A stretch of 64,000 nucleotides of DNA from an uncultured Acidobacteriota bacterium (GCA_963796275.1 CAWCKY010000004.1:992001-1056000); one strand, 5' to 3'. Counted from the stretch's first letter, positions 1-45,400 are shown. Numbers and translations are program-made. The notes: a model not told the origin generated them from the letters alone.

Positions 1-207
1 GCCTCGCCGACGCTGGTCTTCGCTGTTATCGGGCAGGCGCGCGCCGAAAACTTTATCAGCCCGGAGGAGGAGAGCCGGATATTCTCCGAGATGCTCGATT
101 ACTGGGCGCTACGCAACGCGCTCGATTACCGAGTTAATTGCGCCAATCCGACGGGGAAGTATTTAACCCCATCGCAATTTATTCCTGACCAAATTTTGAG
201 GAGGTAA
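1..207 (+). CDS. 3' end of a hypothetical protein, truncated by the window edge
   Basis: Frame 1 is open from base 1 (ASPTLVFAVIGQARAENFISPEEESRIFSEMLDYWALRN...QILRR) to TAA at 205-207. Its last codons AGGAGG serve as the SD for the ATG at 209, indicating translational coupling. Confidence 0.75.
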   Translation, partial: ASPTLVFAVIGQARAENFISPEEESRIFSEMLDYWALRNALDYRVNCANPTGKYLTPSQFIPDQILRR

Positions 208-208
208 T

Positions 209-1963
209 ATGAATAAGAATCCGCACAAGCATGCTGAGGCGACCGGCACCAATGAGTTGGAACGAGCAAAATCCGTCGCCAACGAGCTTGAAAATTCTAA
301 ATCCGAAAAGCTCCGAGACGCGCTGGCGGAGAGCTCCCAGGATGCGCTGGCCAATGCCAGAGCACCTCAGCCATTGGTTAACGTCAAGTTAACGCGCGCA
401 TCGGGCGTTCCGAGCCCCGGAGATCTCGGGGACGAGAAGATATTCTGGACGGCTATCCGCAATCGCACCGAGGCCATCGGCTTCGACAATTATGCCAAAG
501 TGATCGATGCCGTTCTGTGCGGCAGAAATAATCCATCGGGAAAGACCTGTAAAGACCCGTCTCAAGATGTCCTGTTCACCGATATCGGAAGTCCTTCGAT
601 CCAAGAGCGGCGCGACAATCTGCTGGACGATTTCCCGAGCATCAACGGCGTCGACTCATATAACCTGCTCAAACTGACTACGCAGGCATTTCTGCTCGTT
701 GAGACCGGGATCATCATCAGGCGCCCACACGTGGGAGCTGATAATTTCATCAGGGATGAGAGAAACAGGTACGGCGACAACTCGATCATCTACCAGAATC
801 CGGATGATCGTAACGACCCCAACAGCCTGAGCTTTCAATTGAGACGCTTCCTGGGTTTCGACCACAAGGTCCCTTACCTCAGCCGGATTGTCGATGCGCT
901 GGTGTCAGCCGGATCCAGGCAGGAAGGCTCGCCGTTCTGCGAGGGTTTACTGCAGAATCGATTCTCATGTCCGAGCATGATCGAACTGATCTGGTCTTTC
1001 TGGAAGGAACAGGGAATGCTGGTTCAAACTATGAACGCCATCGCCCTCCGCTTCCAGAACAAGCGAGGTCCCTCTGACCATGATCCACTGGCCAATCTGG
1101 AGATCGATCCGCTGCGCCCGCTCAGCACACTGATCTGGGGGTTTATTCAAGATGAGTATAACCGCCTGACCGTCGCGCGCCGCGCTTACGAATATGATCA
1201 CCAATATGGATTGAGGATTTACGGGAAGGCCATACCCAATTTGAGACCGGCCGACAGCCGTTCGAAGTTCCTCGAAGCATTTCATAACCTGCTCTATCGC
1301 GCCTCGCTCTTCTATCGCGAAGATGCCGACACGACCGTGATCGCCGACGGGTTCCCGCTTCTGAATGCACTGCGCGAGGTTCATCTGATGCTGGCCGAGG
1401 GAGCGGGCAATCAGTACAGCGATCTGCAGTGGACGGCGCGCGGCGAGATGCTGATGATGCAGTGGTTGTTAGCGCGGCCCGAGATGCGCGAATTTCTGCG
1501 CGGACGCGCGATGGTCCCATACAATGAGCGCTGGATGGGGCAGGTCGATACGATGAAGAGGCTGCAAGGTTGGACGGATACTTCGATCACGCATTTCCGC
1601 AACCTGGCGATCTACGGTGAGCAGATATTGCTCTCTGTGAGGTATGGTGATTGGATCGGCGTTAACGACCAGGAACAGGCAAAAACCTGGGCCAGATACT
1701 GGAGGCCCGAAATTCAGGGGTATATTCACGCCTATCTGGCGGCCACCGGAGTCGATCTGTCTGATGAAGTGGTCGACACACGGCGCGCGGCGGTCCGGTA
1801 CGTTCAACCGTCCGCGCTGTTGAGAGATCGCCTGGCCGCGCAGGGCGGGCAAGCCGGCCTGCCGCCCGCTTCGGGGGGCAGAGCGTTGGTTGCCGGCGGA
1901 GTCGATTTCTCCGCTTCGGCCGGATTCCGCCGGCGCAGGCTCAATCCGGTCAGAGAAGAATGA
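209..1963 (+). CDS. Hypothetical protein of unknown function (584 aa)
   Basis: Long ORF with AGGAGG SD. Trp/Tyr-rich globular-looking core (ELIWSFWKEQGMLVQTMNAIALRFQN, RRAYEYDHQYG, WARYWRPEIQGYIHAY), no signal peptide, basic C-terminal tail. No family recognised. Confidence 0.85.
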   Translation: MNKNPHKHAEATGTNELERAKSVANELENSKSEKLRDALAESSQDALANARAPQPLVNVKLTRASGVPSPGDLGDEKIFWTAIRNRTEAIGFDNYAKVIDAVLCGRNNPSGKTCKDPSQDVLFTDIGSPSIQERRDNLLDDFPSINGVDSYNLLKLTTQAFLLVETGIIIRRPHVGADNFIRDERNRYGDNSIIYQNPDDRNDPNSLSFQLRRFLGFDHKVPYLSRIVDALVSAGSRQEGSPFCEGLLQNRFSCPSMIELIWSFWKEQGMLVQTMNAIALRFQNKRGPSDHDPLANLEIDPLRPLSTLIWGFIQDEYNRLTVARRAYEYDHQYGLRIYGKAIPNLRPADSRSKFLEAFHNLLYRASLFYREDADTTVIADGFPLLNALREVHLMLAEGAGNQYSDLQWTARGEMLMMQWLLARPEMREFLRGRAMVPYNERWMGQVDTMKRLQGWTDTSITHFRNLAIYGEQILLSVRYGDWIGVNDQEQAKTWARYWRPEIQGYIHAYLAATGVDLSDEVVDTRRAAVRYVQPSALLRDRLAAQGGQAGLPPASGGRALVAGGVDFSASAGFRRRRLNPVREE

Positions 1964-2121
1964 ACCGAATCGTGATCATACCTTGAGCCGTGGCGCCGAT
2001 GTATCCGCCATCGCCGCGGCTCCCGGATCCATCACAACCTGTTATCTCCAGCGGCCGATTGGTGGATTATGCCAATTGTGGCGGCTGTGGCCATCAGCCA
2101 TATCAAAAGTAGGAGCCGATC

Positions 2122-4206
2122 ATGAGCAGCCGATTTAATAGTGAAATATTCGAAACCCAGCCTTTCATTTTTGAAGAAGGTGAAGATAACGAGAGAGACA
2201 GACCCATCGGGCATAGCAGAGTTGCCTCTCGCCGACCCGCTGGCCGAAGCAAGCAATCGGCCCGGCGACGGCAACCGGCGCGCTCGCGCCCAAGCCCAAG
2301 ATTTCAGATCAGATTCCCGGTCTTTTCACTGCCATACACGGCTTTGCCAGTGCCGGTTGAAACAGCGAATGAGCCTGATGCCCAAGAGCCGCCGATAGAT
2401 TCTGCCCCGGACGATGCCACCACTCCACAGCTCGAAATCGGCTCTGGCGGCGAACGGAGCAAGAGGAGCAAAAGGGGCAACGGGGGTAAGGGGGACCAAC
2501 GAAGCGAGGGGGGCCAACGAGGCGAGGGGGACCAACGAGGCGAGGGGGGCCAACGAGGCGAGGGGGGCGAGTACGTGCGCCGCGTGCAGAGCAAGCTGAA
2601 CCGGCTATTAGGATTGAAGCTGCCGCTGGATGGCGAGATGGGTGTGAAGACGCGCGCCGCGATTCGCAGCCTGCAGCGAAAATATGGGCTGCCAGTCGAT
2701 GGGATCATCCGGCCGCAGACTGAACGCATATTGGCCGCGGCTGGCCATTCCCGACGCCCGCTCCGCACAGAAGAAGAGATCGACAGTGAGGTTGATCGAG
2801 GCAGTTATGATTACGCCCGGTGGGTGCAGCGTTCCCTCAACCACCTTATGGGCATGGGGCTTGTCGAAGATGGAATCATAGGTACGCATACCCGCAGCGC
2901 AATCCGCAGTTTCCAACAACGATACGGTTTGATCGTGGACGGAATCGTCGGGCCGCAGACCGAGGGAGCGCTCATCAATGCCGGCGCCGCCCCTCCGCCG
3001 GGCGACGTGGGCACTTACCCTTCGACTCCTCCTCGAACAGGCGCGCCGGCAGGATCGCTTGCCTGGGGAGCGAAAGTCTCGAACGAGTTTCGAACCAAGG
3101 TACTGGCTATCGCCAGGACGTTAAATTGTGATCCGAACCACCTGATGGCAGCCATGGCATTCGAGACGGCCGAGTCATTCAGTCCATCCAAACGAAATCC
3201 ATATAGTGGCGCCACGGGGCTCATCCAATTCACAGTGACGACGGCGAAGAGACTCGGGACCACGACGGATGCCCTGGCCCGAATGACAGCCTTGCAACAG
3301 CTCGATTATGTCAAAAAGTACATGCAGGAATACGCCAACCGGATAAATACGATTGAAGACGTTTATATGGCGATCCTTTGGCCGAAAGCCATTGGCCAAC
3401 CGAACAGCATGATTTTGATGTCGCGTAATAGTAGCGATGCAGTTAACCGACTAGCTTACGAGCAGAACGCCCCCCTCGATGCCAGTCGAGACGGCACAAT
3501 CACGAAAGCCGAGGCAGCCGAGCCCGTTCGGCAGAGGCTGGCGAAGGGCTTGCTGCCCGGGAATGTCAGCTCGGCACCTACTTCCGGCAGTCCGAGTTCA
3601 TACATCCCGATTCCTCCCTTAACCGGCGGGCAGCCGACTCCGGCACAGCCAACGAGAAAACAGCTGAGCGGCGGCGCGTGGGTCGATCAATTTCGAGGCA
3701 GCTCAAGTCCGGACGATCTCGCCTCGCCCTTCCGTGAAAACGTCAAGAAATTCCTGGCGGCCCTGGCTGAAGCCGGAGCCAACGTCAGGATCAGTACGAC
3801 TTTCCGTCCGGTCCAGCGGCAGTATCTAATGTATTGGGCGGCCCAGATCGCCAGGAGCAAAAGTACCGGACAAAACATCCCTCAATATCCCGGCGTGAAT
3901 ATCGAGTGGTGGCACGGTAACGTCGAGGCCTCCAGACGGGCGGCCCAGGAAATGGTGGACCGTTTCGGGATTGGCCAAAATCCGGTCGCGTATCCGGAGC
4001 GCTCGCTTCACGACGAGAGTAAGGCGATCGATATGAGTCTCAGCTGGACCGGAAATTTGCGAATCAGGAAAACCGACGGCCAATATGTCACTATCACGTC
4101 TTCACCAAAAGACGGTACTAATCGCGATCTGGTCGAGGTCGGGAAAAGTTACAAGGTCTACCATCTGGCAAACGATCCCCCACACTGGTCGATAAATGGC
4201 AGCTGA
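2122..4206 (+). CDS. Multidomain peptidoglycan hydrolase: 2 PG-binding domains, lysozyme-like/lytic transglycosylase domain, M15-like Zn peptidase domain
   Basis: Two PG_binding_1-like repeats (VQxxLN..DGxxGxxTRxAIRxxQ..GLxVDGI). Lysozyme-like block MAFET...GATGLIQF...QLDYVKKY. C-terminal STTFRP...SLHDESKAID...DPPHW resembles M15/VanY. AGGAG SD. Confidence 0.8.
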   Translation: MSSRFNSEIFETQPFIFEEGEDNERDRPIGHSRVASRRPAGRSKQSARRRQPARSRPSPRFQIRFPVFSLPYTALPVPVETANEPDAQEPPIDSAPDDATTPQLEIGSGGERSKRSKRGNGGKGDQRSEGGQRGEGDQRGEGGQRGEGGEYVRRVQSKLNRLLGLKLPLDGEMGVKTRAAIRSLQRKYGLPVDGIIRPQTERILAAAGHSRRPLRTEEEIDSEVDRGSYDYARWVQRSLNHLMGMGLVEDGIIGTHTRSAIRSFQQRYGLIVDGIVGPQTEGALINAGAAPPPGDVGTYPSTPPRTGAPAGSLAWGAKVSNEFRTKVLAIARTLNCDPNHLMAAMAFETAESFSPSKRNPYSGATGLIQFTVTTAKRLGTTTDALARMTALQQLDYVKKYMQEYANRINTIEDVYMAILWPKAIGQPNSMILMSRNSSDAVNRLAYEQNAPLDASRDGTITKAEAAEPVRQRLAKGLLPGNVSSAPTSGSPSSYIPIPPLTGGQPTPAQPTRKQLSGGAWVDQFRGSSSPDDLASPFRENVKKFLAALAEAGANVRISTTFRPVQRQYLMYWAAQIARSKSTGQNIPQYPGVNIEWWHGNVEASRRAAQEMVDRFGIGQNPVAYPERSLHDESKAIDMSLSWTGNLRIRKTDGQYVTITSSPKDGTNRDLVEVGKSYKVYHLANDPPHWSINGS
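2491..2568 (+). repeat. In-frame 18-bp tandem repeat (about 4.3 copies) encoding G[DG]QR[SG]E
   Basis: ggg gac caa cga agc gag / ggg ggc caa cga ggc gag / ggg gac caa cga ggc gag / ggg ggc caa cga ggc gag / ggg ggc. Confidence 0.9.
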
Positions 4207-4250
4207 TCATCGGCGTCGCCGATTCATGCCCGATTCATGGAAGATAAGCG

Positions 4251-5036
4251 ATGATCATAGATTGTCATTGCCACGCCGGAAAAGGCGACGGGTTGACCGG
4301 CCCATGGGACACCAACGCGTCGCTCGAAAAATATCTGCCGCGAGCGCAACGAGCCGGCATCGATCGTACCGTGCTGCTCGCGGCATTCCATTCTGATTAT
4401 TCCTCGGCTAACCACGAAGTGGCGCGCATCGTCGCCTCTCAACCCGATCGCTTTTACGGATTCGCCTTCGTACACCCGGCGCGCGACCGCGGGCGGGTGG
4501 CGGTGATGGTAGGAGAGGCGGTCACGCGATATGGCTTCGTCGGGATCAAGGTTCATCGGCACGATTCGCCGATCACGCGCGAAATTTGCGATGTCGCTCG
4601 GAGATTCTCACTGCCGGTTATGTACGACGTCATGGGTGAAATATCGGCGATCGAACTGCTGGCAGCGGAGTATTCCGACGTGCCGTTCATTATCCCGCAC
4701 CTCGGCAGTTTCGCCGACGACTGGCGGGCGCAGCTGGCACTGATCGACCAGTTGGAACGGCATCCGAACGTTTATACCGACACTTCGGGCGTGCGGCGAT
4801 TCGACCTGCTCGATCAAGCCGTTCGACGCGCGGGAGCGGAAAAAATATTATTTGGATCCGACGGGCCGTGGCTGCACCCCGGAGTCGAACTGGCGAAAGT
4901 CAAAGCGCTCGGATTATCGCCTTTGAGGGAGCAGATGGTGCTGGGCGACAACTTTCTGCGGCTGATCGATCATCCCCCTTCAATATACGCTCGGCCCGCT
5001 GCACTTGATGCGCGCCGACGGTCAAGCCGAGCCTAG
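4251..5036 (+). CDS. Amidohydrolase-2 family metal-dependent hydrolase
   Basis: IIDCHCH (HxH), GIKVH, IIPHLG and ILFGSDGP TIM-barrel motifs. Confidence 0.9.
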   Translation: MIIDCHCHAGKGDGLTGPWDTNASLEKYLPRAQRAGIDRTVLLAAFHSDYSSANHEVARIVASQPDRFYGFAFVHPARDRGRVAVMVGEAVTRYGFVGIKVHRHDSPITREICDVARRFSLPVMYDVMGEISAIELLAAEYSDVPFIIPHLGSFADDWRAQLALIDQLERHPNVYTDTSGVRRFDLLDQAVRRAGAEKILFGSDGPWLHPGVELAKVKALGLSPLREQMVLGDNFLRLIDHPPSIYARPAALDARRRSSRA

Positions 5037-5144
5037 TCGATCCCTAGGACAGTCTCGCGCTTAAAGCCCAGACCGATGAAATGAAGGTTGCAAGGTTCGC
5101 AATAGTCCCGGCCTCTCAAGGTCTCACTACCCAACCTTTGCACG

Positions 5145-5382
5145 AATCAGCCCACGTAGTGGGCGATAGAATAAAGCCCAGGGTGTAGCCGAAGGCGTAA
5201 CCCTTGTGGCGTACCTTAATCGCGCGAGCCCACGAAGTGGGCGATAGACCTCAAAATTGCGTGGTTGATCCCAAACTCTGCCGCCCGTTTCACTGGCTCG
5301 AACCATCTTTATGATGTCACCCAGGGTTACGCCTTCGGCTACACCCGGGCTATATTCTGTTGCCCGCATTCGCGGGCTGATT
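5145..5382. repeat. REP/REPIN-like nested palindromic element (family A, copy 1)
   Basis: Terminal inverted repeat aatcagccc...gggctgatt with internal arms agcccagggtgtagccgaaggcgtaaccc / gggttacgccttcggctacacccgggct. A closely similar copy lies at 45161-45400. Confidence 0.85.
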
Positions 5383-5462
5383 ACTACGGTTATTTTTAGT
5401 GCTGCCTCTTTTGTATCTTTGTGAGTTTTGTGGTGAATTTTCTTGATCAGCCGAACGCTGCT

Positions 5463-8120
5463 TCACTCACTGCGCAATGCCACCATCGGGTCTACTTTCG
5501 TCGCTCGCCGCGCCGGTATCCAGCATGCAACGAGCGCCACCATCATCAACACCACCGCGATCACCATAAAGGTCAACGGATCAGTCGGGCGCACGCCAAA
5601 CAACAAGGTCTCCATCCACCTCGTCAGCGCGAACGCCGACAGCAATCCGATCGCGATGCCGATCAGCGCCAGCGTCATTCCCTGGGCAATCACTATCTTC
5701 AGCACATCTCTCGCCTGCGCTCCCAATGCCATGCGGATACCAATTTCTCGTGTGCGCTGTGTAACCGCATAGGCCATCACACCGTAGATGCCAACCGACG
5801 CCAGGATCAAAGCTACAACCGCGAAGACCGTCAGGAGAACCGTGTTGAAGCGCGCGCGCCCCATCGATTCAGACAGCCAGCTCTCCATCGTGCGGACCTC
5901 TGCGACAGGCTGGTCGTGATCGAGCGATCGGATCACTCCACGCGCTGCCGCAGCCACATTCAAAGGGTCACCCGCTGTTCGTATGACGAGCGTCATGCCG
6001 GGGAATGCCAGTTCCGAATGCGGCCAATAAAAAGTAGGCTCAGCGTCCCAAGCCAGAGTCTCCTGCTTCGCGTCGCCGACGATGCCGATTATCTCCACCG
6101 GCGGGTTCCGGCTTGGAGGACGGGAGTGGATCGTTACCTGTTTGCCGATGGGGTCTTCGCTCGGGAAGTATTTGCGAGCCAATGCTTCATTGATAAGTAC
6201 GACGCCTTGCGCCTCAGTCGCCTCCTGTTCGGTGTAGATGCGCCCGCGCAGCAGTGGGATCTGAAGCGCGCGAAAATAATGGGCGTCGGTAACACAAACT
6301 TTCGTCAAAAGGTCCTGTCCGGCTGGAGGCTTCGGACGGTCTTCGATGTAAAAACGGACGCCGATAGCGGGACTGGCAAACGGGAGAGCGGAGACTGCGC
6401 CGGCGGCCTTCACTCCGGGCAGCGCCTGCAGACGCTCCACGGCCTGCTTGATCAAGTCGATGCGTTGTCGTTCCGGTGCTTGCCAATTCCGCGACACGCC
6501 CACTCCCATTGTCAGCACATTTTCCGGATTGAACCCGGGATCGACTGCCTGCAATCGCGCGAAGCTGTTTATCAGCAGGCCGGCGCCGGCGAGCAACACC
6601 AGCGCCAGCGCGACTTCCGCGATGACAAATAGGCTGCGCAGGCGCCGGTTGTGGCGACCCTCTGCGACGCTTCGGCCGTTCTCCTTAAGAGTGTATTGTA
6701 GATTCACGCGTAACGACGCAAATGCGGGCACGATGCCGATGAAGAGGCTGGTCGCTAGCGAGATGCTGAGCGTAAAGATGAGAACGCGCGCGTTGATCCG
6801 GATGCTCTGCAGGATGAGCAGGTCGGGCGGACTCAGAGAGACCAACAGGTTTGTACCCCAGACAGAGAGCAACAAACCGGCAGCGCCGCCCAGGGCGACC
6901 AGCAACAGGCTTTCAGTCAATAACTGACGTACAATCCGCAAACGGCTCGCTCCCAGCGCCGAGCGTAACGCGATCTCTTTACCTCGCGCCGCCGCCCGCG
7001 CCAGCTGCAGGTTCGCCACGTTCGCGCAAACAATCAATAAGACGAAGGCGATCGCGCCGAACAGCACCAGCAAGGTCAGGCGCAAACCACCGTACAACTG
7101 TTCGCGCAGCGGGACCACTGAAGCGCTCAGATTGGCATGGTAATTCGGATATTGCTCTGCTATCCGCGCCGCAATCGTCGCCATCTCGGCCTGTGCCCGG
7201 TCAATAGAAATGCCCGGTTTGAGGCGAGCGACAGCGTTCAGATATCGTCCCTGCCACACGCGATGGCCTCTGGTCGGAGCAAATGTCGTCCAGAGCTCGG
7301 CCGATTCCCCGCCCTTCACTCTCCATTGAAAACCTGGCGGCATGACTCCGACGATCGTGGCTTCATCGGGAAGAGCCTGAATTATCTTAAGCCGGCGACC
7401 GATGATTGCCGGATCGCCAGCGAAACGCCGTTGCCATAAGCTATGGCTGATCAATATAACTCGCGGCTGATTCGGTCTGACATCGTCTGATGTGAAACCA
7501 CGTCCCAGTGCTGCTCTTACGCCGAGCAACTTAAACAGGTTGTGTGTCACACTCTGTGATGCGACCTCCTCCGGCTCGCCATCGCCGGTCAGGACCGCCC
7601 GACCGCCAGCGAAAGCAGCCATATCGGCGATGACGTGATTCTGTTCCTGCCAATCCGCAAATGTATCGGGATCGACTCCCATCTGCGGGAAATTGCGCGC
7701 GGGCCAGCTCTCCGAAACCAGCATCAGTCGTTCAGCCTCGTGATATGGCAGCGGGCGCAACAGCACCTCATTTACCACGCTGAAGATCGCGGTATTTGCG
7801 CCGATCCCCAACGCCAGAGATAGCACCGCGATGAAAGTGAAGCCCGGCTGTTTCAACAGCATTCGCGCGCCAAAACGCAGATCCTGCCAGGCTTCTTCAA
7901 CCCGTCGGAGCCGGCTGACATCCCGATAGGCTTCCTTCTGCTGCTCCACACCCCCGAAGCTTCGCAGTGCCGCCAACCGCGCCTCTTCTTCGCTCATTCC
8001 CCGCCGAATGTTGGCGGCCGTCTCCATCTCCAGATGAAATCGCATCTCGACATCCATCTCGCGCTCGGCATTTCGCCGTCGCAAACTCGCCGTCAGACGA
8101 TGAAATAATTGGCGAAGCAT
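5463..8120 (-). CDS. ADOP-type ABC permease (2x MacB_PCD-FtsX) with canonical permease-prefix N-terminus
   Basis: [58 protein letters not shown]. Start moved to ATG 8120, which has a GGAGG SD. Confidence 0.92.
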   Translation of the reverse strand: MLRQLFHRLTASLRRRNAEREMDVEMRFHLEMETAANIRRGMSEEEARLAALRSFGGVEQQKEAYRDVSRLRRVEEAWQDLRFGARMLLKQPGFTFIAVLSLALGIGANTAIFSVVNEVLLRPLPYHEAERLMLVSESWPARNFPQMGVDPDTFADWQEQNHVIADMAAFAGGRAVLTGDGEPEEVASQSVTHNLFKLLGVRAALGRGFTSDDVRPNQPRVILISHSLWQRRFAGDPAIIGRRLKIIQALPDEATIVGVMPPGFQWRVKGGESAELWTTFAPTRGHRVWQGRYLNAVARLKPGISIDRAQAEMATIAARIAEQYPNYHANLSASVVPLREQLYGGLRLTLLVLFGAIAFVLLIVCANVANLQLARAAARGKEIALRSALGASRLRIVRQLLTESLLLVALGGAAGLLLSVWGTNLLVSLSPPDLLILQSIRINARVLIFTLSISLATSLFIGIVPAFASLRVNLQYTLKENGRSVAEGRHNRRLRSLFVIAEVALALVLLAGAGLLINSFARLQAVDPGFNPENVLTMGVGVSRNWQAPERQRIDLIKQAVERLQALPGVKAAGAVSALPFASPAIGVRFYIEDRPKPPAGQDLLTKVCVTDAHYFRALQIPLLRGRIYTEQEATEAQGVVLINEALARKYFPSEDPIGKQVTIHSRPPSRNPPVEIIGIVGDAKQETLAWDAEPTFYWPHSELAFPGMTLVIRTAGDPLNVAAAARGVIRSLDHDQPVAEVRTMESWLSESMGRARFNTVLLTVFAVVALILASVGIYGVMAYAVTQRTREIGIRMALGAQARDVLKIVIAQGMTLALIGIAIGLLSAFALTRWMETLLFGVRPTDPLTFMVIAVVLMMVALVACWIPARRATKVDPMVALRSE

Positions 8121-8132
8121 TGCATCTCCCTC

Positions 8133-8180
8133 CAGATGTTCTACAGGAACGATACTATTCCTCTTGTAGACAGTCAAGAG
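8133..8180 (-). promoter_or_regulatory. Sigma70-like promoter with two TAGA-N3-TCTA-like operator candidates
   Basis: Minus strand TTGACT(8177-8172)-17 nt-TATCGT(8154-8149). Palindrome CTCTTG-N8-CAAGAG at 8161-8180. Boxes TAGACAGTCAA (8167-8177) and TAGAACATCTG (minus strand, 8143-8133). Confidence 0.55.
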
Positions 8181-8329
8181 AGGTGAGGATCGGGGCAGGC
8201 GGCTGGGAATGGTCCTGGAGTTTATCTGACTATGACCATATCGTTTCGCCTCACATCCATTCAATTGTCACCCTCCCCACCAGAATTTTCGCGCAGCCAA
8301 TAAAACCGAAGGGACTGGATCGAACTGGC

Positions 8330-11053: not shown

Positions 11054-11263
11054 CCAGATGCAAACGACCTTAGAAAAATACAAGACTATTTCTCTATCCG
11101 GTGACTTAATTAAAGTAGAACAATGCTCAAGATAGCTTTGAATCATTCCGGCCACATGTATCGCCTGAAGAAAGTCCACAACGGCATTCTCAGCTAAACG
11201 CTCGAACATAATCTGCTTAGTACAGCAGAGGGAATGGGATTCGCCAATGAATCGGAGGATGGA

Positions 11264-14200
11264 ATGAACACAAAAACATCGTCTCAGTTAATACTGCAGG
11301 CTATCGTAATTACCGCAGTCATGATTGCGCACGCAAGCACGGTTTTAGCGCAAAACACAACGACAGGAATCCGCGGAATCGTACGCGATCAAACAGGAGC
11401 CGTGGTCCCGCAGGCCGCGATCAAGCTGACGGATAACGCCACCGGGATCGAGCACACGACCGTCTCTTCCAGCGATGGCGGGTTCTTGATCCCCAATTTG
11501 CAATCGGGCACTTACAAGATGACCGCGTCCGCCGCGGGCTTCCAAGCCGCGGCTTTTCACGCGATAACCGTCGATTCAGGCCGGACCACCAACGTCTCGA
11601 TCGATCTGCAGGTCGGCGTCGCGTCGGAGGTGGTGCAGGTGACGGCGAGCGATGCGCGGCTCGACACGACATCGAACGAGATCGGCACGACGATCAACAA
11701 CAAGCTGGTTCAGAACTTGCCCTACAGCGGCCGCGAAAGCCTGAACTTCGCTGTACTTATGGCAGGCAATTCGCAAGCCAATTCGGAACGCAACAGCACG
11801 TTCAACGGTCTCCCCAATGCTTCGCTCAACATCTCGCTCGACGGCATGAACAACAATTCACAGCGCTTCAAAAGCGGCGGTACGAGTTTCTTCGCTTTCG
11901 CTCCGGCGCGGATCGATGCCATCGAAGAGGTGACTGTTTCGACAACCGGGCTGGGCGCGGAGGCGGGAGGTCAAGGCGCTATGCAGATTCGCCTCACGAC
12001 CAAGCGCGGAACCGAGAATTATCACGGACAGATTCTCTATCAGATGCGCAATGAAGCTCTCAACGCGAATACGTTTTTCAACAACCTGTCGGGACGGCCG
12101 CGCAACAGGGTGCGCGAAAACGACGCGGTCGGATCCATCGGCGGCCCGTTGCTGCCGTTCATTCCATATTTCAAAAAGAAGCTGTTCTTCTTCGCTTATT
12201 ATGAAGCCGTTCCGCAACCGGGCACGCAAAATTCATCGACCAGTGTGCTATCTCCTTTGGCGCAACAGGGTATCTTTACTTATATCGGAACAGACGGTAA
12301 GAAATACAGTCCGAACCTGCTGGCGATAGCCGGCGAACACGGTCATACAAACACAGTTGATCCCACCATTGCCGGTATCCTGAGCTCGATCAATGACACC
12401 CGAGCAATGGCCGCCGGCTTTCTCCCTATCGCCGGAATTCCGTCCGAATTCCAACAGACAATGCAGTGGACACAGGCACCAATACCGAGACTTATTACCC
12501 AACCGTGCGCCTGGACTATCACATTACCCCGGCTGTCGCGTGGCACGGCACCTGGAATCTGAGGAATAACAAGATCGCTGGTAGACCGTCCTATCCGGGC
12601 AATCCCTATTCCTTCGCGCCAAACGAAACTCCCTACCAGATCACGACATATGTGGCTACCAACGCAGTGGATTGGACGATCAGGCCGAATCTGGTCAACA
12701 ACACAACATTCGGCATTCAGAGCAATGGCGAATACTTCACTAAAGGCGCTGAACCTCAACAATATTCCGTTTACGGAAACCGAATCTTAAACTTTCCGAC
12801 GATAAACAACGTTCCGTTGATCGCCCCATTCGTTCCGGGCTCCGGCCAGCAGCCGTCTATTCGAAATAATCCCGTCTACCAGCTCACCGACAACCTGAGC
12901 TGGGTCAAGGGGCGCCACACCCTGACTTTCGGCGGCACAATGCTGCACACAACCTTCTACGATACGTCCTATGGCAGCGCGGGAGTGCCGCAATACGAAT
13001 TCGGAGTGGTAGCGAGCGATCCGATGAACCAATTCCTCAGGACTAAACTGGAAAATATCAACACCAATAACAACGATATCAACAATGCGCTCAATCTCTA
13101 TGCGCTGCTCACGGGTCGAATCACCAGCATCAACGTTTCAACGAATGTGGACGAGATGTCGAAGACATATAGCCAGTTCGCTCCGGTCACGCAGCGCTTC
13201 GCCTTCACCACCGTCGGCGTTTACGCGCAGGACAGTTTTCGCATCAACCCGGACCTCACGCTGAACTTCGGATTGCGATGGCAATTCGACGGCAGCATTC
13301 ACAGCACCAACGGTATCAATTCCATGGCTGCCGGACCGAACTTCTATGGGCCATCCACCGGGCTCTTCCAGCCGGGAGTATTGAGCGGGGTCACGAATCC
13401 GGGCTTCGTCCAGGTATCAAATCCTTATAAACGCGATTTCGTGAATCCGGCTCCCAATTTCGGCTTCGCGTGGAATCCATCCGGAGAAAAGGGTCTCCTG
13501 GGTAGGCTTTTCGGAGATCGTAAAACTGTCATCCGCGGCGCTTACTCAATCACTTTCTATAATGAGGGGATGAACGCCATCTCCAACGTGCTCTCGGGAG
13601 GTCAGGGTACAAGGCAGAATGGCTCGGTTACGAACGGCACGAATTTCACGGCGGGAGAGCTGGAGCTGCGTATGCCTGCGCCACCGATCAGGGTCTTCCC
13701 CGATACATTCAGTTTTCCTATAGCGCAGTCCGCATTCGCGACCCCGCAAACAGGCAACTTCGTCAATCCGAATCTTGTATCGCCATATACGCAGAACTGG
13801 ACCCTTGGTATACAGAGGCAACTCACGCGGAATATGGTGCTCGAACTCCGGTATGTCGGTAATAAGGCCACTCACATGTGGCACCGCCAGAATCGCCAGG
13901 AGACCAATATTTTCGAGAACGGTTTTCTCGATCAGTTCAACCAGGCGAAGCGGAACCTCGATATCAACGAAGCAATCTTAAGAGTGCCGACATTTGCCAA
14001 CAACAACCTGCCCGGTCAGGCTTCGATTCCTATTTTCGAGGCCGCCTTCGGAAAGCTGGGGATTCAGAATACAGTCGCCAACAATCAGGGTTTCGGTTCC
14101 GCGACATTTATCCAGAATCTGAAGCAAGGCACTGCAGGTACGCTGGCAAATACCCTTGCTACCAATAACACCTATTTCTGCCGTCTGGTGGGGAACAATC

Positions 14201-15105
14201 TCCCCGCCTGTGCAACCGCCGGTTTCAACACACCCGGCATTTACCCGATCAACCTCTTTCGCGCCAACCCATTTGTAGGCAACCTCGATTACCAGGACTC
14301 GAATGGCGATTCCAATTACAACGCGATGCAGATCGATCTTCGCCACCAATACGCCAATGGGTTGCTGCTCGGCACCAACTATACCTGGGCGCATTCCCTG
14401 AGCGACATCCTGAACCGTGATGATCAAGCTGCCGGGTATACCTGGTACACACTGCGCAATGCCCGTCTCAATTACGGGCCGACGCCGTTCGATCGCCGGC
14501 ATGTCTTCAACCTCTTCTGGACCTACGATCTGCCTTTCGGTAAAGGGCGGAAGTTCGGTGTCGCCAACCCCGTCATCGATCGGGTCATCGGAGGCTGGAC
14601 GCTCGGCGGACGCGAGTCGATTGCGTCCGGCGATCCGGTACTACTCAACGGCGGCCGCAACACAGTCAACAATCTCACACAAGCCGGTGTGGTCTTCGGC
14701 GGCGACCTCACTCCGCAGCAGTTACAGAAAGCGTTGAGCTCGGTGGCGGGTGACTTCTCCCCCACCGCGCTCATCTCAAACATAGCGGAGATCGCGACGA
14801 TCAGCAGGAATACGAATTCCAGTCAGGTCAACGCTGCGCTCTACGCTCCGGCCTCCACACCGGGCCAGTACGCCGCGTTCGTCTATCTGCGCAACAACAC
14901 CAGCTTCCAATTTGATATGAGCGTCAACAAGGAGATCCGCATCAATGAACGAATGCGGCTGACTCTGCGAGCGGTTGCCTTGAACTTCCTGAACCATCCG
15001 TTCTTCGACCTGGGGAACACCAGTCCGACCGCCACATCGTTCGGACAGATCACCAGCGCTAGCGGGAATCGAACGGTGCAGTTGCGCGCGAGCTTCGATT
15101 GGTAG
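11264..15105 (+). CDS. Oar-like TonB-dependent receptor with carboxypeptidase-regulatory N-domain; one frameshift near 12475
   Basis: Signal peptide, GIVRDQTGAVVP, plug (DAIEEVTV..TKRGT), barrel ending QLRASFDW. ORFs 11234-12562 and 12466-15105 join if one base is restored in ACA CAG GC ACC. Confidence 0.85.
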
Positions 15106-18071: not shown

Positions 18072-18884
18072 TCATCGCCACTCAAGAGGTGGAAGATAAT
18101 CCTTATTTTGCCCGATCACATCCCGATCGGCGTTGAAACGGCGGCCCCACAATTCATGGCTGATCGCAACAACCAGATTGCTTCCATCGTCTGAATCATC
18201 GGCGGGCGTCAACAATCGCCCCCATTCAGGCTTCACACCCAAGACGTCGAAGAAATTTCCCGAGACCAACTCGCCTTCCACGCGCTCCGCTTCCCGGCCG
18301 TCGTTTAAATTGAAAGAGCCGCCGGCTTTCACCGCCAGACCGGACATCACATTGTTGTGGTCGCGGTAATCGAGGTAGTCGGGATACGAAAACTCGCTGA
18401 AGCCTCGGCCTTCGTATGTCCGGTTTACTTGCGCCAGCCGCCCCGACTCGGTCACGCCGCGGAGTGGCTTGAACAACAAGGGGTTGATAAAACTGAAGAC
18501 CGCCGTGTTCGCTCCAATGCCGAGCGCCAGAGTGATGACGGCGATCAAAGTGAACCCCGGGTTCTTCATCAACATTCGCGCGCCGTAACGCAGGTCTTGC
18601 CAAAAGTCTGCAATCATATTCACCCTTCTGTTGTTTCCGAGAGGGATTGGCTCCTGCGTGACCCGCCACTCAACGTGCCGCAGTCCCCGTTGTAGCGTTG
18701 CGCCCTCGCTCAACTCCGCCTGCACCCGGCGCTCTGCTTCTGCTTCTGTCGTGCCGTTCGCCAACGCTTCTTCGTAACAGTCATCGAGGTGCTGTGAGAG
18801 TTCCTCGACGATCTCGGCTTCTCGTGCGGGCTCAAGCTGCAAGCGCGCCAGCCGCTGTCTGATCTCGTGTTTCCATTCAGGAAT
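18072..18884 (-). pseudogene. Truncated ADOP permease, N-terminal third
   Basis: Begins ATT-PEWKHEIRQRL (ATG changed to ATT), runs through GIGANTAVFS and part of MacB_PCD, and breaks off after DVIGQ. Confidence 0.85.
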
Positions 18885-18948: not shown

Positions 18949-21684
18949 TCACTCATATCGCAGCGCGATATTGGGATCTACTTTCGTCGCCCGTCGCGCA
19001 GGCAGGTAACAAGCCAGCATCGCCACGCCCGCGAACAACACGATTACGGCAATAAAGACCGGCGTCGTCGCTGGCATCAGTCCATAGAGCACCTGGGTGA
19101 GGATCGCAGTGAACCCTAATGAGACAAGCAAGCCGATGGCCAACCCGATCAACGTGAGTCGCAATCCATCGCGGACGACAAGGCGAACGACGTCGAAGCC
19201 GCGCGCGCCGAGCGCCATACGGACGCCGATCTCGCGTGTGCGCAGGCTGACGACGTATGAGACGATGCCGTAGAGACCCATCGCGGCGAGAAACAATCCG
19301 AGCAGCCCCTGCGCGCCCGCGAGCACCGCGCCAACCCGCAGCGGCATCATCGCGAAGGCGCTGTCGTTGAGGTGAGCCTCCATCGTCAGGACGTTGTAGA
19401 TAGGCAGATCGGCATCCATATGGCGCAGGACATCGCGCACAGCCGGAGCGAGCGCGGCCGGGTCGCCTGCCGACCACAAGTGGAGTGTCACGGGAGAGGC
19501 GTGGCGCTGCGCGAGCGGAGCGTAGAAAAATGGACGAAGTTCTTCCCCCAGCATGACGTACTTAGCGTTGCGCGCGACGCCGACCACTTGCCAGAAGCCC
19601 TCGTCCTCGCCCCACTTGAACCGTTTGCCCCGCGCATCCTGACCGGGCCACAGACGCTCGGCCATCGTGGCATTGACGATCGCGACCTTGATCGCGGTTT
19701 CGTCGTCGTGTTGGGCGAAGTCGCGTCCTCTCAGCACGGCACCTCCCATCGTTGTCAGGTATTCGGGAGTGACATAGTTGGCGTGCACGGTCGTGAAACT
19801 GTCTGTGTCGCCCGCCTTCTCCTCGGGCGCGACCAACGCGATCTCGAAGAAGTAACTGAAGGGGACGTACGAGGCGAGGCTGGCGGAGCGTACGCCGGGC
19901 TGGCCTTCCAGGCGATCGAGCAATTGCCGGTGGAACTGCTTTTGGCGCGCCTCGTCGTAACCTTGCAGGCCGAGATCGAGTGATGCCAATAGCAGATGGT
20001 CAGTACGGAAGCCGAGGCTTGCGTCAGCGACCTGCTGCAGGCTGCGCACGAACAGCCCTCCGGCGATCAGCACCACAACGCAGATCGCCACTTGAGAGAC
20101 CACCAGCACGCTGCGGAAGAGGTGCCTGCTCGAAGCGAGCAGGCCGCCGCCGCCCTCCTTGAGCGTCGTCTGAAGATCAAACCGTGTCGCGCGCAAGGCG
20201 GGCGCCACCCCAGTCACGACGCCGGCGATGACGGACACCGCGAAGGTGAAGGCAAAAACGCGCCAATCCCACGAGTCGTTATCGGTGCGAATGGGCATAT
20301 CGCCCGCGCCAGAAGGCATGAAGCCGAGAAGGTATCCGCTCCAGTTGGCGAGCAAAGCGCCAACGATGCCTGCCAGACACGCGAGCAGGATGCTCTCCGC
20401 CAGCAACTGGCGAATGAGCCGCCCGCGGTTCGCGCCGATGGCTGTGCGAATAGCCATTTCCTTTTGCCGCGCCACAGAGCGCGAGAACATAAGATTGGCG
20501 ACATTGGCGCAGGCGATGAGCAATACCATACCCACCATCCCCATGAAGACAGAAGCGGCCAGCGGCATGAATTCCGCGGCGACCGGCTCGGGCCGGCAAT
20601 ATTGCTCCTGCACGACGAAGACCGTCGCCTCTTTGTGCTCGTCCGGATATTCCCTGGCCAATTGTTTGCCGGCAATATCCACGGCCACGCCTGCCTGCGC
20701 CACGGTAACGCCTGGCTTCAATCGAGCCATCAATTTAAAGAGTACCGCGCCGCGCGCCTGCAGCAGCTTCCCGCCGCCGGGGCGCGCCTGACCCAACATC
20801 GAGGCGGGAATAAAGGCCCTCGGCGCTAACTTCCATTGCGCGCTGCCGAAGGTATCCGGCGCCACTCCCACAATGGTGAAGGGATGGCCATTGATGCTGA
20901 GCGCCTTGCCGATGACCGAGGGATCTCCGCCGAATTTTCGTTGCCAGTAATCGTGCGACAATACGACGATCGGATCGGCGCCGGGCATCTCGCCCTCCTC
21001 GCGATAGAAGAGGCGTCCCAACTTCGGTTCAACGCCGAGCATGGAAAAATAGTTGCCGCTCACCATCTCGATCCACTCGCGGTCGGGTTGATGTCCGGCG
21101 ATGCTCAGGTGAGCCGGGCCCATAGCGACTGCGAGCATGTCCGAGAAGACCTCCAGACGCTCACGATAGTCGCGAAAGTCGAGCCAGGAGTGGCCATGCG
21201 GCTTGTTCCAAACAGCGCTCTTTTGCAGTACCAGAACGAGCCGGTCCGGCTCTTTCACAGGCAACGGCTTGAAGAAGAATTCGCTGATGATCGAGAAGAT
21301 CGTGATGTTCGCGCTGATCCCGAGCGCGAGCGTGAAGACAGCTGCCGCCGTGAAGCCGCGTTTCTTCATCAATACGCGAGCGCCATAACGCAGGTCTTGC
21401 CAGAAGTCCACCATCATATTAATCCTCCTGTTGGTCCCTAAGACGATAGGCTCTTCCGGCAATGGACGCTCGGACTGCCGCAGCTCCCGTTGCAGCATTT
21501 CACCTTCACGAACCTCTGTGAGCGCAATGCGATAGGCTTCCTCCGCACTTACGCCACGAGCCAGCAATTCTCGGTAGTGATCCTCCAGGTGCTGCGAGAG
21601 CTCTTCGACGATCTCCGCTTCACGCGCCGGCTCGAGCTTCAAGCTGGTAAGCCGCTGTCTGATCTCTTGCTTCCACTCAGGCAT
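18949..21684 (-). CDS. ADOP-type ABC permease with EWK-type N-terminal helical prefix
   Basis: MPEWKQEIRQRL..AREAEIVEELSQHLED prefix, full duplicated MacB_PCD-FtsX, ends DPNIALRYE. Confidence 0.92.
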   Translation of the reverse strand: MPEWKQEIRQRLTSLKLEPAREAEIVEELSQHLEDHYRELLARGVSAEEAYRIALTEVREGEMLQRELRQSERPLPEEPIVLGTNRRINMMVDFWQDLRYGARVLMKKRGFTAAAVFTLALGISANITIFSIISEFFFKPLPVKEPDRLVLVLQKSAVWNKPHGHSWLDFRDYRERLEVFSDMLAVAMGPAHLSIAGHQPDREWIEMVSGNYFSMLGVEPKLGRLFYREEGEMPGADPIVVLSHDYWQRKFGGDPSVIGKALSINGHPFTIVGVAPDTFGSAQWKLAPRAFIPASMLGQARPGGGKLLQARGAVLFKLMARLKPGVTVAQAGVAVDIAGKQLAREYPDEHKEATVFVVQEQYCRPEPVAAEFMPLAASVFMGMVGMVLLIACANVANLMFSRSVARQKEMAIRTAIGANRGRLIRQLLAESILLACLAGIVGALLANWSGYLLGFMPSGAGDMPIRTDNDSWDWRVFAFTFAVSVIAGVVTGVAPALRATRFDLQTTLKEGGGGLLASSRHLFRSVLVVSQVAICVVVLIAGGLFVRSLQQVADASLGFRTDHLLLASLDLGLQGYDEARQKQFHRQLLDRLEGQPGVRSASLASYVPFSYFFEIALVAPEEKAGDTDSFTTVHANYVTPEYLTTMGGAVLRGRDFAQHDDETAIKVAIVNATMAERLWPGQDARGKRFKWGEDEGFWQVVGVARNAKYVMLGEELRPFFYAPLAQRHASPVTLHLWSAGDPAALAPAVRDVLRHMDADLPIYNVLTMEAHLNDSAFAMMPLRVGAVLAGAQGLLGLFLAAMGLYGIVSYVVSLRTREIGVRMALGARGFDVVRLVVRDGLRLTLIGLAIGLLVSLGFTAILTQVLYGLMPATTPVFIAVIVLFAGVAMLACYLPARRATKVDPNIALRYE

Positions 21685-21721
21685 GGTCAGCACCTCTCAT
21701 ACGATCGGTTACAGTCACATA

Positions 21722-40500: not shown

Positions 40501-40880
40501 CACGACACACGTTCCTGCCCCCAGGGCAAACTTTCGGAGTCGAACTCGGCCATCTGCCTGCCGTCAGGTCCTGTTACTGCCACCACCACGTCTATGCCCT
40601 CTTGCTCGACTATCACGCCCAGGTACTGATCGGTTCTCAGCCTGATCTGATAGATATGCTGTCCGCCAGCCAATTCCCGTTGGATAGGCCTTCCCGGTTC
40701 GAGAAGGCGAAAACCCTTCTCATCGCTCGCCTCATCGCCGGCATCACGCGACTCCTGAATCGACTGCTGGTTCAGACCTTGAGCGAATACGAAAGTCTTG
40801 TGCGAAAGCGATGAGGTTGACAGAATGCAGAGCAGAAATAGCGCGATGAAATTGGCTGAGCTCCGGTATATAACCTGCAT
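37545..40880 (-). CDS. TPR-CHAT (caspase-like) protease with N-terminal signal/PPC-like domain
   Basis: About eight 42-aa TPR repeats (AExLxQRALxIxEKxLGPxHP), catalytic HIATHG and VLSGCDTG, MSLWAVSD and HPYYWASF; start set at ATG 40880 (GGAG SD). Confidence 0.92.
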   Translation of the reverse strand: MQVIYRSSANFIALFLLCILSTSSLSHKTFVFAQGLNQQSIQESRDAGDEASDEKGFRLLEPGRPIQRELAGGQHIYQIRLRTDQYLGVIVEQEGIDVVVAVTGPDGRQMAEFDSESLPWGQERVSCVADKEGDYQLSIELRQRGALAGRYAIRIEELRAATENDRALQRAYALCEECRKLKVMGPPIEARPSIERALEIRERLLGPDHRDVAVALNGLGRIYRSRGDFAKAESLLHRSLDILEGVFGPNHPAVTISLNNLGHLYRNMADYAKAEALFQRALRILEKSLGQEHPDYAFTIHNLGLLYWSKGDYAKAEPLFHQSLAIWVKALPPDDPDLGLANNGLGNFYRYRGDFAKAETFYRRALAIREKALGPEHPDLAATLNSLAILYRDRGDYDEAESLAQRALAIQEKVLGPDHSDVARTLNNLALLFHSRGDQQRAEPLAQRALVIWEKALEPEKFELAYSLNILARINRDRADYAKAEQLFQRSLDVLEKTLGPKHPYVADALNDRAALNMRIGNIAQAVAFQSRANSIGEGNLALNLVIGSERQRLAFLGTLSKQADRTISLHLRCAPNDPAARSQSAAIILQRKGRALDATSQSLAALRDRSDPEDQALLDQLSDTRSQIASLVLGEPQKITVEQYFERIGRLEARAEKLEVDIGRRSSEFRAQSLPVTLAAVQAAIPADAALIEFASYRPFDAQAKTDDMAYGEPHYVVYVMRKGEIQWKELGEASAIDGAVAALREALRDPKRTDVRRLARSVDQKVFQPIRPLVGNLTRLLISPDGMLNLLPFVALVDERGRYLVERYSISYLASGRDLLRLQVARESSSGPLVIADPDFGNRSRVEEMRRWKQKTVASNEGSGNRVKESAASIFRQFYFSPLPYTAREGDALQSLLPDATLLTRREASKSALIQVRSPILLHIATHGFFLDDSQLMASVRSGTRSVRNESDQQLRMIEGSGIPIENPLLRSGVALAGANEHKEDDNGILTALEVTGLNLWGTKLVVLSGCDTGVGEVKSGDGVHGLRRALVLAGAETQVMSLWAVSDKGTRELMVSYYKKLKQGEGRGEALRQVQLEMLKQVNRRHPYYWASFIQSGEWTNLEDEQIR

Positions 40881-45160: not shown

Positions 45161-45400
45161 TCAGCCCACGAAGTGGGCGACAGAATACAGCCCAGGGTGG
45201 AGCCGAAGGCGTAACCCTGGGTTGGGTACCATCAAGCCGCGCGAGCCCACGAAGTGGGCGATAGACCTCAAGCTCTTGGGCCTCGATCTCAATCTCTGTA
45301 GCCCGTTTCACGGGCTCGAACCAGATATTTATGACGCACCCAGGGTTACGGCTTCGCCTCCACCCTGGGCTTTATGCTATCGCCCACTACGTGGGCTGAT
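45161..45400. repeat. REP/REPIN-like element (family A, copy 2)
   Basis: tcagcccacgaagtgggcga...tcgcccactacgtgggctga; closely similar to 5145-5382. Confidence 0.87.

Follow-up and report, generated by a model that had tools for sequence, protein, structure and literature searches.

A conserved, sigma-54-controlled gene cassette that pairs a predicted gluzincin-type peptidase with a large unassigned protein family and carries variable envelope-degrading enzymes

In holin-endolysin modules and in "type 10" secretion (the type 10 secretion system; T10SS), peptidoglycan hydrolases without signal peptides are encoded beside a small membrane-active protein. Effectors of the Tae, Tge and Tle types that type VI secretion systems (T6SS) deliver, and the cargo of extracellular contractile injection systems (eCIS), join a conserved N-terminal region to swappable amidase, muramidase, endopeptidase or PLD (phospholipase D) domains, and polymorphic effector loci can hold several effector-like genes in a row. 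Clusters for leader-peptide bacteriocins and for ribosomally synthesized and post-translationally modified peptides (RiPPs) have several precursor genes upstream, an acidic leader before a cationic glycine-rich part and a dedicated metallopeptidase. In RtcR-RtcBA and Psp-type operons a dedicated sigma-54 enhancer-binding protein adjoins its target operon, and short conserved terminal peptides on diverse proteins direct loading into encapsulins and microcompartments. Each of these arrangements is resembled in part by a locus at positions 1-5036 of a 64,000-nucleotide (nt) stretch, hereafter the window, from an uncultured Acidobacteriota bacterium (GCA_963796275.1, CAWCKY010000004.1:992001-1056000). 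It probably represents the 3′ two-thirds of a horizontally mobile, sigma-54-controlled cassette, whose recurrent components are named here C0 (a glycine-rich protein of ~230 amino acids; aa), C2 (a predicted metallopeptidase), C1 (the 584-aa protein of the window), C5 (a pyridoxal phosphate [PLP] enzyme), C8 (a dipeptidase), C4 (an amidohydrolase) and C3 (a sigma-54 activator), together with variable "cargo" genes.

The cassette fails at least one defining feature of holin-endolysin/T10SS modules, of T6SS/eCIS, of RiPP and bacteriocin clusters and of the defence systems in PADLOC. Release by envelope breach would match the first of these, with C0 as the small membrane-active-looking protein; however, C0 has none of the classical holin transmembrane helices, there is no spanin, the cargo is polymorphic and tagged, the cassette additionally holds C2, C1, C4 and a sigma-54 activator, and the phage collection, the neighbouring genes and the window gave no phage context. 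In contrast to T6SS, type VII secretion systems (T7SS) and eCIS, no structural genes (Hcp/VgrG/PAAR, sheath, tube or baseplate) occur in 80 related loci, as judged from the recurrent neighbour clusters and from Pfam and PHROGs scans of representatives. No conserved neighbouring open reading frame (ORF) with a signal peptide was seen as a candidate for periplasmic immunity, but small immunity genes could escape the crude ORF calls. The "precursors" are ~230 aa long, the same kind of tag stands on enzymes of 300-1100 aa, and no ABC exporter, C39 peptidase or known modifying enzyme was found among the neighbours, all of which sets the cassette apart from RiPP and bacteriocin clusters. C3 scores below every curated cut-off for RtcR- and Psp-type activators and the genes that it adjoins are unrelated to theirs, and no HK97-fold, microcompartment (BMC) or other shell family was detected with Pfam or PHROGs. 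In PADLOC only the activator had matches (RtcR/PspF-type); C0, C2, C1, the cargo, C4, C5 and C8 had none.

The window part of the cassette consists of four co-oriented ORFs on the + strand (1-207, 209-1963, 2122-4206 and 4251-5036), a set that had been noticed in an earlier reading made from the sequence alone and that we confirmed. The first ORF is open at its 5′ end and comprises the last 68 codons of C2, the catalytic part of which lies outside the window; this fragment had no match in Pfam or NCBIfam. Its translational coupling to C1, also part of the sequence-only reading, agrees with the sequence at 199-211 (+), in which a GGAGG (199-204) within the last C2 codons is followed by TAA (205-207) and ATG (209-211). 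C1 (209-1963, +) encodes 584 aa with a variable, hydrophilic N-terminus (residues ~1-75) and a strongly conserved core (~76-545). The core had been called aromatic-rich; with 12.0% F+W+Y over residues 250-540 it is, but moderately so, since 14 other long proteins of the window range from 6.1 to 11.9%.

The third gene (2122-4206, +) is the variable cargo gene of this cassette and encodes a 694-aa multi-domain peptidoglycan hydrolase with no signal peptide. As the earlier reading had it, there is no Sec or Tat signal: the N-terminus is acidic, aromatic and not hydrophobic (net charge -5 over residues 1-30) and gives way to an Arg/Pro-rich, basic, low-complexity stretch that extends to about residue 140 (net charge +8 over residues 31-140). 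Two PG_binding_1 domains follow at residues ~144-207 and ~232-290 (2551-2991, +; Pfam PF01471, expectation value [E] 3.8e-27, two stretches), a region also matched by PG-binding domains in the PDB. A lytic transglycosylase/lysozyme-like domain at residues 313-480 (3058-3561, +) matched PDB 9udh_A, "lytic transglycosidase" (E 9.9e-47), and phrog_196, a baseplate-hub C-terminal region (E 1e-48). The claim that two wall-cleaving domains are combined with PG-binding domains stands for the latter and for the transglycosylase, but the second wall-cleaving domain, a VanY/M15-like (LAS-type) metallopeptidase region at residues ~537-694 (3730-4203, +), matched Pfam VanY only weakly (E 0.0036; 17.5 bits vs. 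a cut-off of 25). An S-x-H-x6-D motif and a late His are readable in this translated C-terminal region, which is 56% identical to that of the orthologue in locus L002; orthologues of the 694-aa protein come after C1 in both L001 and L002. The last gene of the cassette, C4 (4251-5036, +), encodes a 261-aa Amidohydro_2 protein, a TIM-barrel metal hydrolase (Pfam PF04909, E 2.5e-21; 77.1 bits vs. a gathering cut-off of 26.4), for which the best PDB match was only 3cjp_A (E 1.3e-5). Downstream, a spacer of 430 bp that is rich in repeats separates it from a convergent gene for an ADOP permease.

A scan of GTDB with one genome per species gave 326 confirmed stretches that encode a C1 relative, and the best 80 loci were analyzed; their ORFs were called crudely and clustered, and linkage was checked by tblastn. 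The genes are ordered C0, C2, C1, optionally C5, variable genes, optionally C8, and C4, followed by C3 on the opposite strand. The 68-aa C2 fragment of the window had a tblastn match just upstream of C1 in 71/80 loci, and under a stricter adjacency rule C2 and C1 were neighbours in 55/74; the gap between them, over 50 adjacent pairs of other loci, has a median of 11 nt. C0 was found within 5 kb upstream of C1 in 68 of the 69 loci that have at least 2.5 kb of upstream flank; these 68 loci carry one to three copies, and 26 of them at least two. Of the 47 loci whose downstream flank reaches at least 9 kb, 41 have C4 downstream on the same strand, 44 have the C3 activator (on the opposite strand in 43) and 13 have C8, while C5 is adjacent in 38/71 loci. 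The distance from C1 to C4 varies between 76 and 9697 nt. This linkage is far beyond chance; a single locus, L076, holds C1 without any partner. A fixed core with variable wall-lytic cargo across phyla is what the sequence-only reading had led one to look for in gene neighbourhoods, and it is what these loci contain. Beyond C0-C8 the 80 loci had no recurrent neighbour clusters. Four further clusters were rejected as antisense artefacts of ORF calling: C11 and C12 translate to low-complexity sequence, and C9 and C13 are antisense to, and overlap, the genes for C1 and C4.

The 80 loci come from Pseudomonadota (34), Acidobacteriota (31), Thermodesulfobacteriota (5), Verrucomicrobiota (2) and Chloroflexota (2); five further phyla contributed a single locus each, and for the last locus the phylum is unassigned. 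The earlier statement that similar genes occur together in scattered soil bacteria proved correct, for soil and freshwater organisms from nine or more named phyla. Phyla mix in the C1 tree, where the starred branches force at least four changes of label for Pseudomonadota and at least five for Acidobacteriota, which suggests that the cassette has spread horizontally, with the usual caveat on binned genomes. Members of the C1 family were found on four megaplasmids or chromids and in none of the phage records of the collection searched; the Ensifer plasmid record is without annotation. Many of the carriers are ammonia oxidisers or methanotrophs of Nitrosomonas, Nitrosospira, Methylobacter, Methylococcaceae, Methylocapsa and Methylomirabilis (loci L019, L024, L025, L032, L035, L039, L041, L047, L049, L052, L053, L061, L062, L071 and L075), which may reflect biology or sampling.

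Control by sigma-54 was not part of the earlier reading, and neither were the C0 protein and the leader tag described below. C3 is a sigma-54 enhancer-binding protein encoded convergently at the end of the cassette. Strict -24/-12 sites numbered 17 in all loci, and 11 of them lie directly before a C0 gene; with up to two mismatches, a site was present within 300 nt before the first C0 in 25/50 loci vs. 21/960 random control windows, and most sites are 54-102 nt from the C0 start codon. In L071, an additional C0 copy has a strict site ahead of it, the second in this locus, and trypsin-like cargo genes come after this copy. The promoter and the linked activator are features of the related loci, the window's own 5′ end being cut off. 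C3 best matched RtcR-type regulators (NCBIfam NF038308, E 6.7e-83; PADLOC PDLC01995, E 2.5e-88), mostly in its AAA+ and helix-turn-helix (HTH) part and with an RtcR score of 279 bits vs. a curated cut-off of 650. RtcR, NifA and PspF are its closest named relatives, all with scores under the curated cut-offs. The N-terminal ~125 aa had no match, and a PDB profile search with it gave nothing below E 0.23.

The family to which the first 207 nt belong appears to be one of cytoplasmic metallopeptidases of ~450 aa with an HExxH...ExxxD signature, so the upstream HExxH protein that the earlier reading had named is indeed there, with the window holding its C-terminus. The window fragment is 78.6% identical to the C-terminus of the 441-aa protein of L001. 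HE[VIC]GH is present in 56/58 clustered members, the two exceptions being fragments. In alignment A2 HEVGHQ is followed ~38 residues on by SEILAD(FW), and H199, E200, H203, E242 and D246 are invariant. We take the HExxH motif together with the downstream Glu of ExxxD to be the gluzincin arrangement. Sequence matches to the curated gluzincin families (M1, M2, M3, M4, M13, M48 and others) were not obtained; Pfam gave none in 26/26 members, except DUF533 at E 0.11 in two, a PDB profile search gave 0 matches, and NCBIfam, PADLOC and PHROGs gave none.

The protein to which this putative peptidase is coupled belongs to a large family. A word-indexed search in which 8000 candidates were scored found at least 4542 proteins at E<=0.001, and with an exhaustive profile search the number of clusters at the 50% level was 1205 (E<=0.001), of which 631 reached E<=1e-30. 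The relative P0001 is 94% identical to the window protein, and all named proteins among the best 120 relatives are labelled "hypothetical". The statement that the 584-aa protein cannot be assigned to any family held in Pfam, NCBIfam, PADLOC, PHROGs and PDB sequences, the last also with a profile (0 matches), and a Pfam scan of all 36 members of a wider alignment gave nothing usable. A poor ESM Atlas model of the homologue P0007 (predicted local distance difference test score 0.32) had no named neighbour, with template-modelling scores of at most 0.29, and hhalign found C1 and C2 to be unrelated. C1 is ~50-60% identical between phyla; mean column identity is 62% in alignment A1 (26 sequences from several phyla), and the invariant polar and aromatic runs persist in the 36-sequence alignment, which reaches down to 44% identity. 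Among the invariant residues are E328xxH331 and E356xxH359, flanked by E298/D300 and E390xH392 with a spacing of ~30 residues, and the alignment suggests that these E/H motifs might form a metal site. With ~60% identity across phyla and many invariant polar residues, C1 looks more like an enzyme or a tightly constrained adaptor than like a structural subunit, the role proposed for it earlier; neither C1 nor the scanned neighbours matched a capsid, sheath, tube, BMC or encapsulin family in Pfam or PHROGs. Some longer C1 homologues begin with CarboxypepD_reg or PKD-like beta-sandwich segments (sub-threshold, E 5e-5 to 2e-4), which the window protein does not have. 

C0 belongs to a family of at least 3796 proteins, many of them in tandem duplications. 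A conserved start leads into an aromatic stretch that is very acidic (net charge of -21 as the median). Next come a conserved helix that ends in E-L-x-x-F-L-G, a cationic Gly/Ala-rich part directly after it (+7 over 70 residues) and a conserved acidic-helical part, with the motif R-W-x-R-R-G...I-L-x-G at the C-terminus. Within the cationic part, the longest uncharged Gly/Ala-rich stretch has a median of 25 residues. The maximum Kyte-Doolittle hydropathy over 19 residues has a median of 1.31 and reaches at least 1.6 in 2/71 members. Some homologues matched Pfam Gly-zipper_Omp, and in P0292, P0294, P0349 and P0320 the conserved helix passed the Pfam cut-off for PF23135, "TRI4 N-terminal domain", a label for which the literature gave only the fungal trichothecene TRI4. 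NCBIfam and PADLOC gave no match, and a PDB profile search found designed helical repeats only. Matches to phrog_3405 (E 2.7e-4) and to a tape-measure family (E 0.005) in PHROGs were judged to be driven by composition and were rejected. Of the remaining enzymes, C4 has full-length matches in different phyla that share 58-81% identity with the window protein, C5 is a BioF/Kbl-like PLP enzyme (resembling 8-amino-7-oxononanoate synthase and Kbl) that keeps the PLP lysine, and C8 reaches the NCBIfam cut-off for an M20 dipeptidase. The cassette is widely shared, C0, C2 and C1 stand outside known families, and as a gene system it is apparently undescribed; a structure may yet assign C1 to some known superfamily. 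A full-text literature search, which did not reach subscription papers, found no published description of it.

Between C1 and C4 or C3, the 80 loci contain 156 ORFs of at least 150 aa, of which 104 were scanned for domains; those left out were 41 that matched C5, C8 or C0, 5 of L076 and 6 others. PG_binding_1 was present in 45/104; Amidase_2, GH25, 3D and M15_4 were met in company with it, and one of the PG_binding_1 proteins has a PLD phospholipase domain as well. A further 28 had OmpA, VanY, M23, M74, Muramidase, Glucosaminidase/DUF2272, Trypsin, Extensin-like_C or Reprolysin domains, one had HEAT repeats and 30 had no domain match. A hydrophobic N-terminus (score >=1.8) occurred in only ~4/168 ORFs, one of them in the cassette-less L076. 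In contrast, 45/105 cargo-zone ORFs had an acidic N-terminus vs. 15/351 other ORFs, and the acidic-then-basic pattern was found in 28/105 vs. 3/351, with a median net charge of -6 and then +7 in the cargo. The signal-less envelope-degrading enzymes and the glycine-rich C0 thus have an anionic-then-cationic N-terminal layout in common.

In a more specific tag, a position taken by an aromatic residue or Leu and then an acidic one come before [E/Q]-P-F and acidic residues. Aligned on their initiator Met, 24 proteins from many families, seeds that had been chosen by a regular expression, have this tag; one of them is the 694-aa window protein (residues 1-26; 2122-2199, +). Among non-seed sequences, a model of the tag matched three cargo-position proteins of other loci at E<=0.0023 and, equally strongly, an antisense ORF of 84 aa that is unrelated. 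Searching the database with just the leader of the window cargo (residues 1-75) found only the orthologue P0270 and so says nothing about how widespread the tag is. No conserved ORF with a signal peptide was seen beside the hydrolases, where the crude ORF starts could hide small genes.

Several other observations concern the cargo zone. In L003 the C-terminal 260 aa of a tagged PG_binding_1/VanY protein (L003:2376-4562) are 56% identical to L009:3-971, which clustered with the C0 family, indicating that fusion or common domains can link C0-like modules with cargo modules. A protein of ~240 aa with a Cys-Gly-rich N-terminus (cluster C19; e.g., L011:13788-14510) stands between cargo genes in the three Acidobacteriota loci L009-L011 and had no family match. 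In Geotalea, the sole gene between the PLP enzyme and the amidohydrolase encodes a 201-aa protein (L030:11166-11771) with a weak match to GIY-YIG nucleases (E 6e-4), from which it appears that cargo may not always target the wall.

Taken as a whole, the results show a conserved, mobile, sigma-54-controlled cassette in which a gluzincin-type peptidase is coupled to the highly constrained C1. As the best reading of its function we tentatively favour a sigma-54-triggered module that activates and releases lytic enzymes, and we hold this to be possible rather than probable. The dedicated enhancer-binding protein would fire the sigma-54 promoter before C0, so that the set is made only on a signal. 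C0 and the hydrolases would be made in the cytoplasm as pro-forms in which the acidic aromatic tag masks the adjacent cationic segment, and C2, coupled to C1, would remove or remodel the tag, with C1 as a partner that may recognise or modify the substrates. The freed C0, cationic and glycine-zipper-like, would then permeabilise the inner membrane in the manner of a non-canonical holin; the signal-less hydrolases, proteases and phospholipase would reach the wall, and the cell would lyse and release them. The outcome could be altruistic suicide or a bacteriolytic enzyme cocktail directed against neighbours. We infer every step after the first, and the roles of C1 and C4 are the least certain.

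A number of observations speak against such a module. C1 and C4 are conserved far beyond what a lysis accessory would need; the invariant Glu, His, Arg, Tyr and Asn residues of C1 suggest catalysis, which the mechanism leaves unexplained, and C5 with its PLP lysine and the M20 dipeptidase C8 point to small-molecule chemistry. C0 has no classical transmembrane helix. The count of 24 tagged proteins is partly circular because of the way in which the seeds were chosen, and in many proteins of the cargo zone the N-terminus is acidic but lacks the exact motif. L078, with C4 only 76 nt after C1, has no wall hydrolase, and neither does the Ensifer locus L081, which has only C0 copies. Finally, neither C0 nor the promoter can be seen in the window, whose start cuts C2, and no homologue of the activator occurs within it. 

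Other accounts of the same genes can be given. C2, C1 and C4 could form a cytoplasmic machine that recognises the N-terminal tag and delivers or activates an arsenal of C0, wall hydrolases, proteases and phospholipase without a known secretion system, the sigma-54 activator serving as the trigger. If so, this would be a new protein-deployment system, horizontally spread over Acidobacteriota, Pseudomonadota, Thermodesulfobacteriota and at least six other phyla; we consider it doubtful, but worth keeping in view. Centring the cassette on C0 leads elsewhere. C0 is its most constant partner (68/69 loci), its precursor-like paralogues stand ahead of the enzymes, and hydrolase-free cassettes exist, as would be expected of a bacteriocin- or RiPP-like maturation pathway. 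In that case C0 would be the leader-bearing precursor of a membrane-active product, C1 a metal-dependent modifier, C2 the leader peptidase and the hydrolases accessory synergists, while C4, the PLP enzyme and the M20 peptidase would serve in tailoring or self-protection. The conserved C0 helix that ends in E-L-x-x-F-L-G before the cationic part, presumably similar to double-glycine-type leaders, fits this proposal, as do a weak match of one C0 homologue to the type-A lantibiotic leader family (E 0.03), the matches of others to Pfam TRI4_N (the label mentioned above) and the ~30-residue spacing of the C1 E/H motifs, which could make up a dimetal site. However, C0 is ~230 aa long and conserved throughout, including its C-terminal motif, unlike short RiPP cores; the Pfam scans of neighbours and alignments found no exporter, RiPP recognition element or known modifying-enzyme family; the dimetal idea is based on motif spacing only; and the acidic tag on enzymes of 300-1100 aa is left unexplained. 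We therefore regard this pathway as unlikely.

The particle, shell or export apparatus proposed in the sequence-only reading, with the 584-aa protein as structural subunit and the tag as a loading or export signal, draws on a core that is fixed where the cargo is polymorphic, on the N-terminal tag common to the cargo, on the absence of any other secretion system nearby and on the conserved C-terminal peptide of C0, which could serve as a docking motif. CarboxypepD_reg and PKD-like domains are usual on extracellular or particle proteins, and the beginnings of some longer C1 homologues would agree with this; but those matches are sub-threshold and not in the window protein, conservation of C1 is enzyme-like, and the core contains neither a membrane-spanning component nor an ATPase nor any of the known families of shells, sheaths or tubes, which makes an apparatus of this kind quite unlikely. 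The earlier interpretation is thus partly supported, through its linked core and cargo. That the cassette looks horizontally mobile, that its activator best matches RtcR-type regulators and that no conserved signal-peptide immunity candidate was seen beside the hydrolases, as would fit self-targeting, could also mean abortive infection or stress suicide, in which the activator senses phage or translation damage and sets off destruction of the cell's own wall, membrane and proteins. We consider this improbable: the RtcR match is far under its cut-off and mostly in the AAA+/HTH part, with the N-terminal ~125 aa unmatched, no core protein matches PADLOC, and a polymorphic multi-enzyme cargo is unexpected where a single endolysin would suffice. 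Very improbable, in our judgement, is an ordinary operon for wall remodelling, recycling or exit from dormancy, in which C2, the M20 peptidase and C4 would process muropeptides. Peptidases and amidohydrolases do stand beside wall hydrolases, and part of the 694-aa protein resembles SleB-type PG-binding domains, but export signals are missing from the hydrolases, the distribution over phyla is patchy and mixed, the polymorphic cargo includes a phospholipase and trypsin-like proteases, and control by sigma-54 is tight.

The remainder of the window is ordinary Acidobacteriota content; the best homologues come from Blastocatellia. Phage, holin and secretion-system genes were absent from the rest of the 64 kb and, as had been noted for the genes first in view, no holin, phage or T6SS gene was found nearby in the related loci either. 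Rfam had no match in window positions 1-6000, and a scan for sigma-70 promoters and terminators was at chance level. The spacer after the C4 gene contains a 22-nt direct repeat with a palindromic core (5149-5170 and 5227-5248) and a 27-nt inverted repeat (5178-5204/5323-5349). A 19-nt core of the former recurs at 45165-45183, 45246-45264 and 45377-45395 (-), giving five matches vs. none expected. These repeats look like an intergenic element of the repetitive extragenic palindromic (REP) or miniature inverted-repeat transposable element (MITE) kind beside ADOP permease genes. Eight genes or fragments of such MacB_PCD/FtsX (ADOP-type) permeases occur in the 64 kb, all on the - strand (5463-8264, 18072-18842, 18949-21693, 24741-27011, 27539-29023, 29811-32519, 42401-45094 and 53622-56090), of which those at 18072-18842 and 27539-29023 look truncated. 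Two genes for outer-membrane beta-barrel proteins (OMP_b-brl_4, headed by CarboxypepD_reg) are split over overlapping ORFs (11234-12562 and 12466-15105; 57051-58307, 58267-59223 and 59045-60814), which are frameshifts, pseudogenes or sequencing errors. A 1175-aa TPR-CHAT protein with a caspase-like CHAT domain (E 8.8e-81) is encoded at 37545-41072 (-).

In the cassette, a sigma-54 switch and a varying complement of envelope-degrading enzymes are tied to three abundant families; two of these, C1 and C2, are without annotation, assigned fold or literature, and the third, C0, bears no more than stray labels. Among the hosts are bacteria that dominate soil and fresh water: Acidobacteriota, nitrifiers, methanotrophs, Geobacteraceae and rhizobia. 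Since the cultured carriers include Nitrosospira briensis Nsp8, Methylocapsa palsarum NE2, Geotalea sp. SG265, Cupriavidus respiraculi and Ensifer adhaerens, the cassette is testable. Should C1 be a new enzyme, it would belong to the larger families that are still unassigned. If the cassette serves for regulated lysis or enzyme release, it would bear on how slow-growing carriers kill, die and recycle biomass and on how signal-less enzymes exit Gram-negative cells, and it would be a source of naturally polycation-tagged lysins. The presence of swappable wall enzymes with a similar tag hints at a new way of deploying lytic enzymes.

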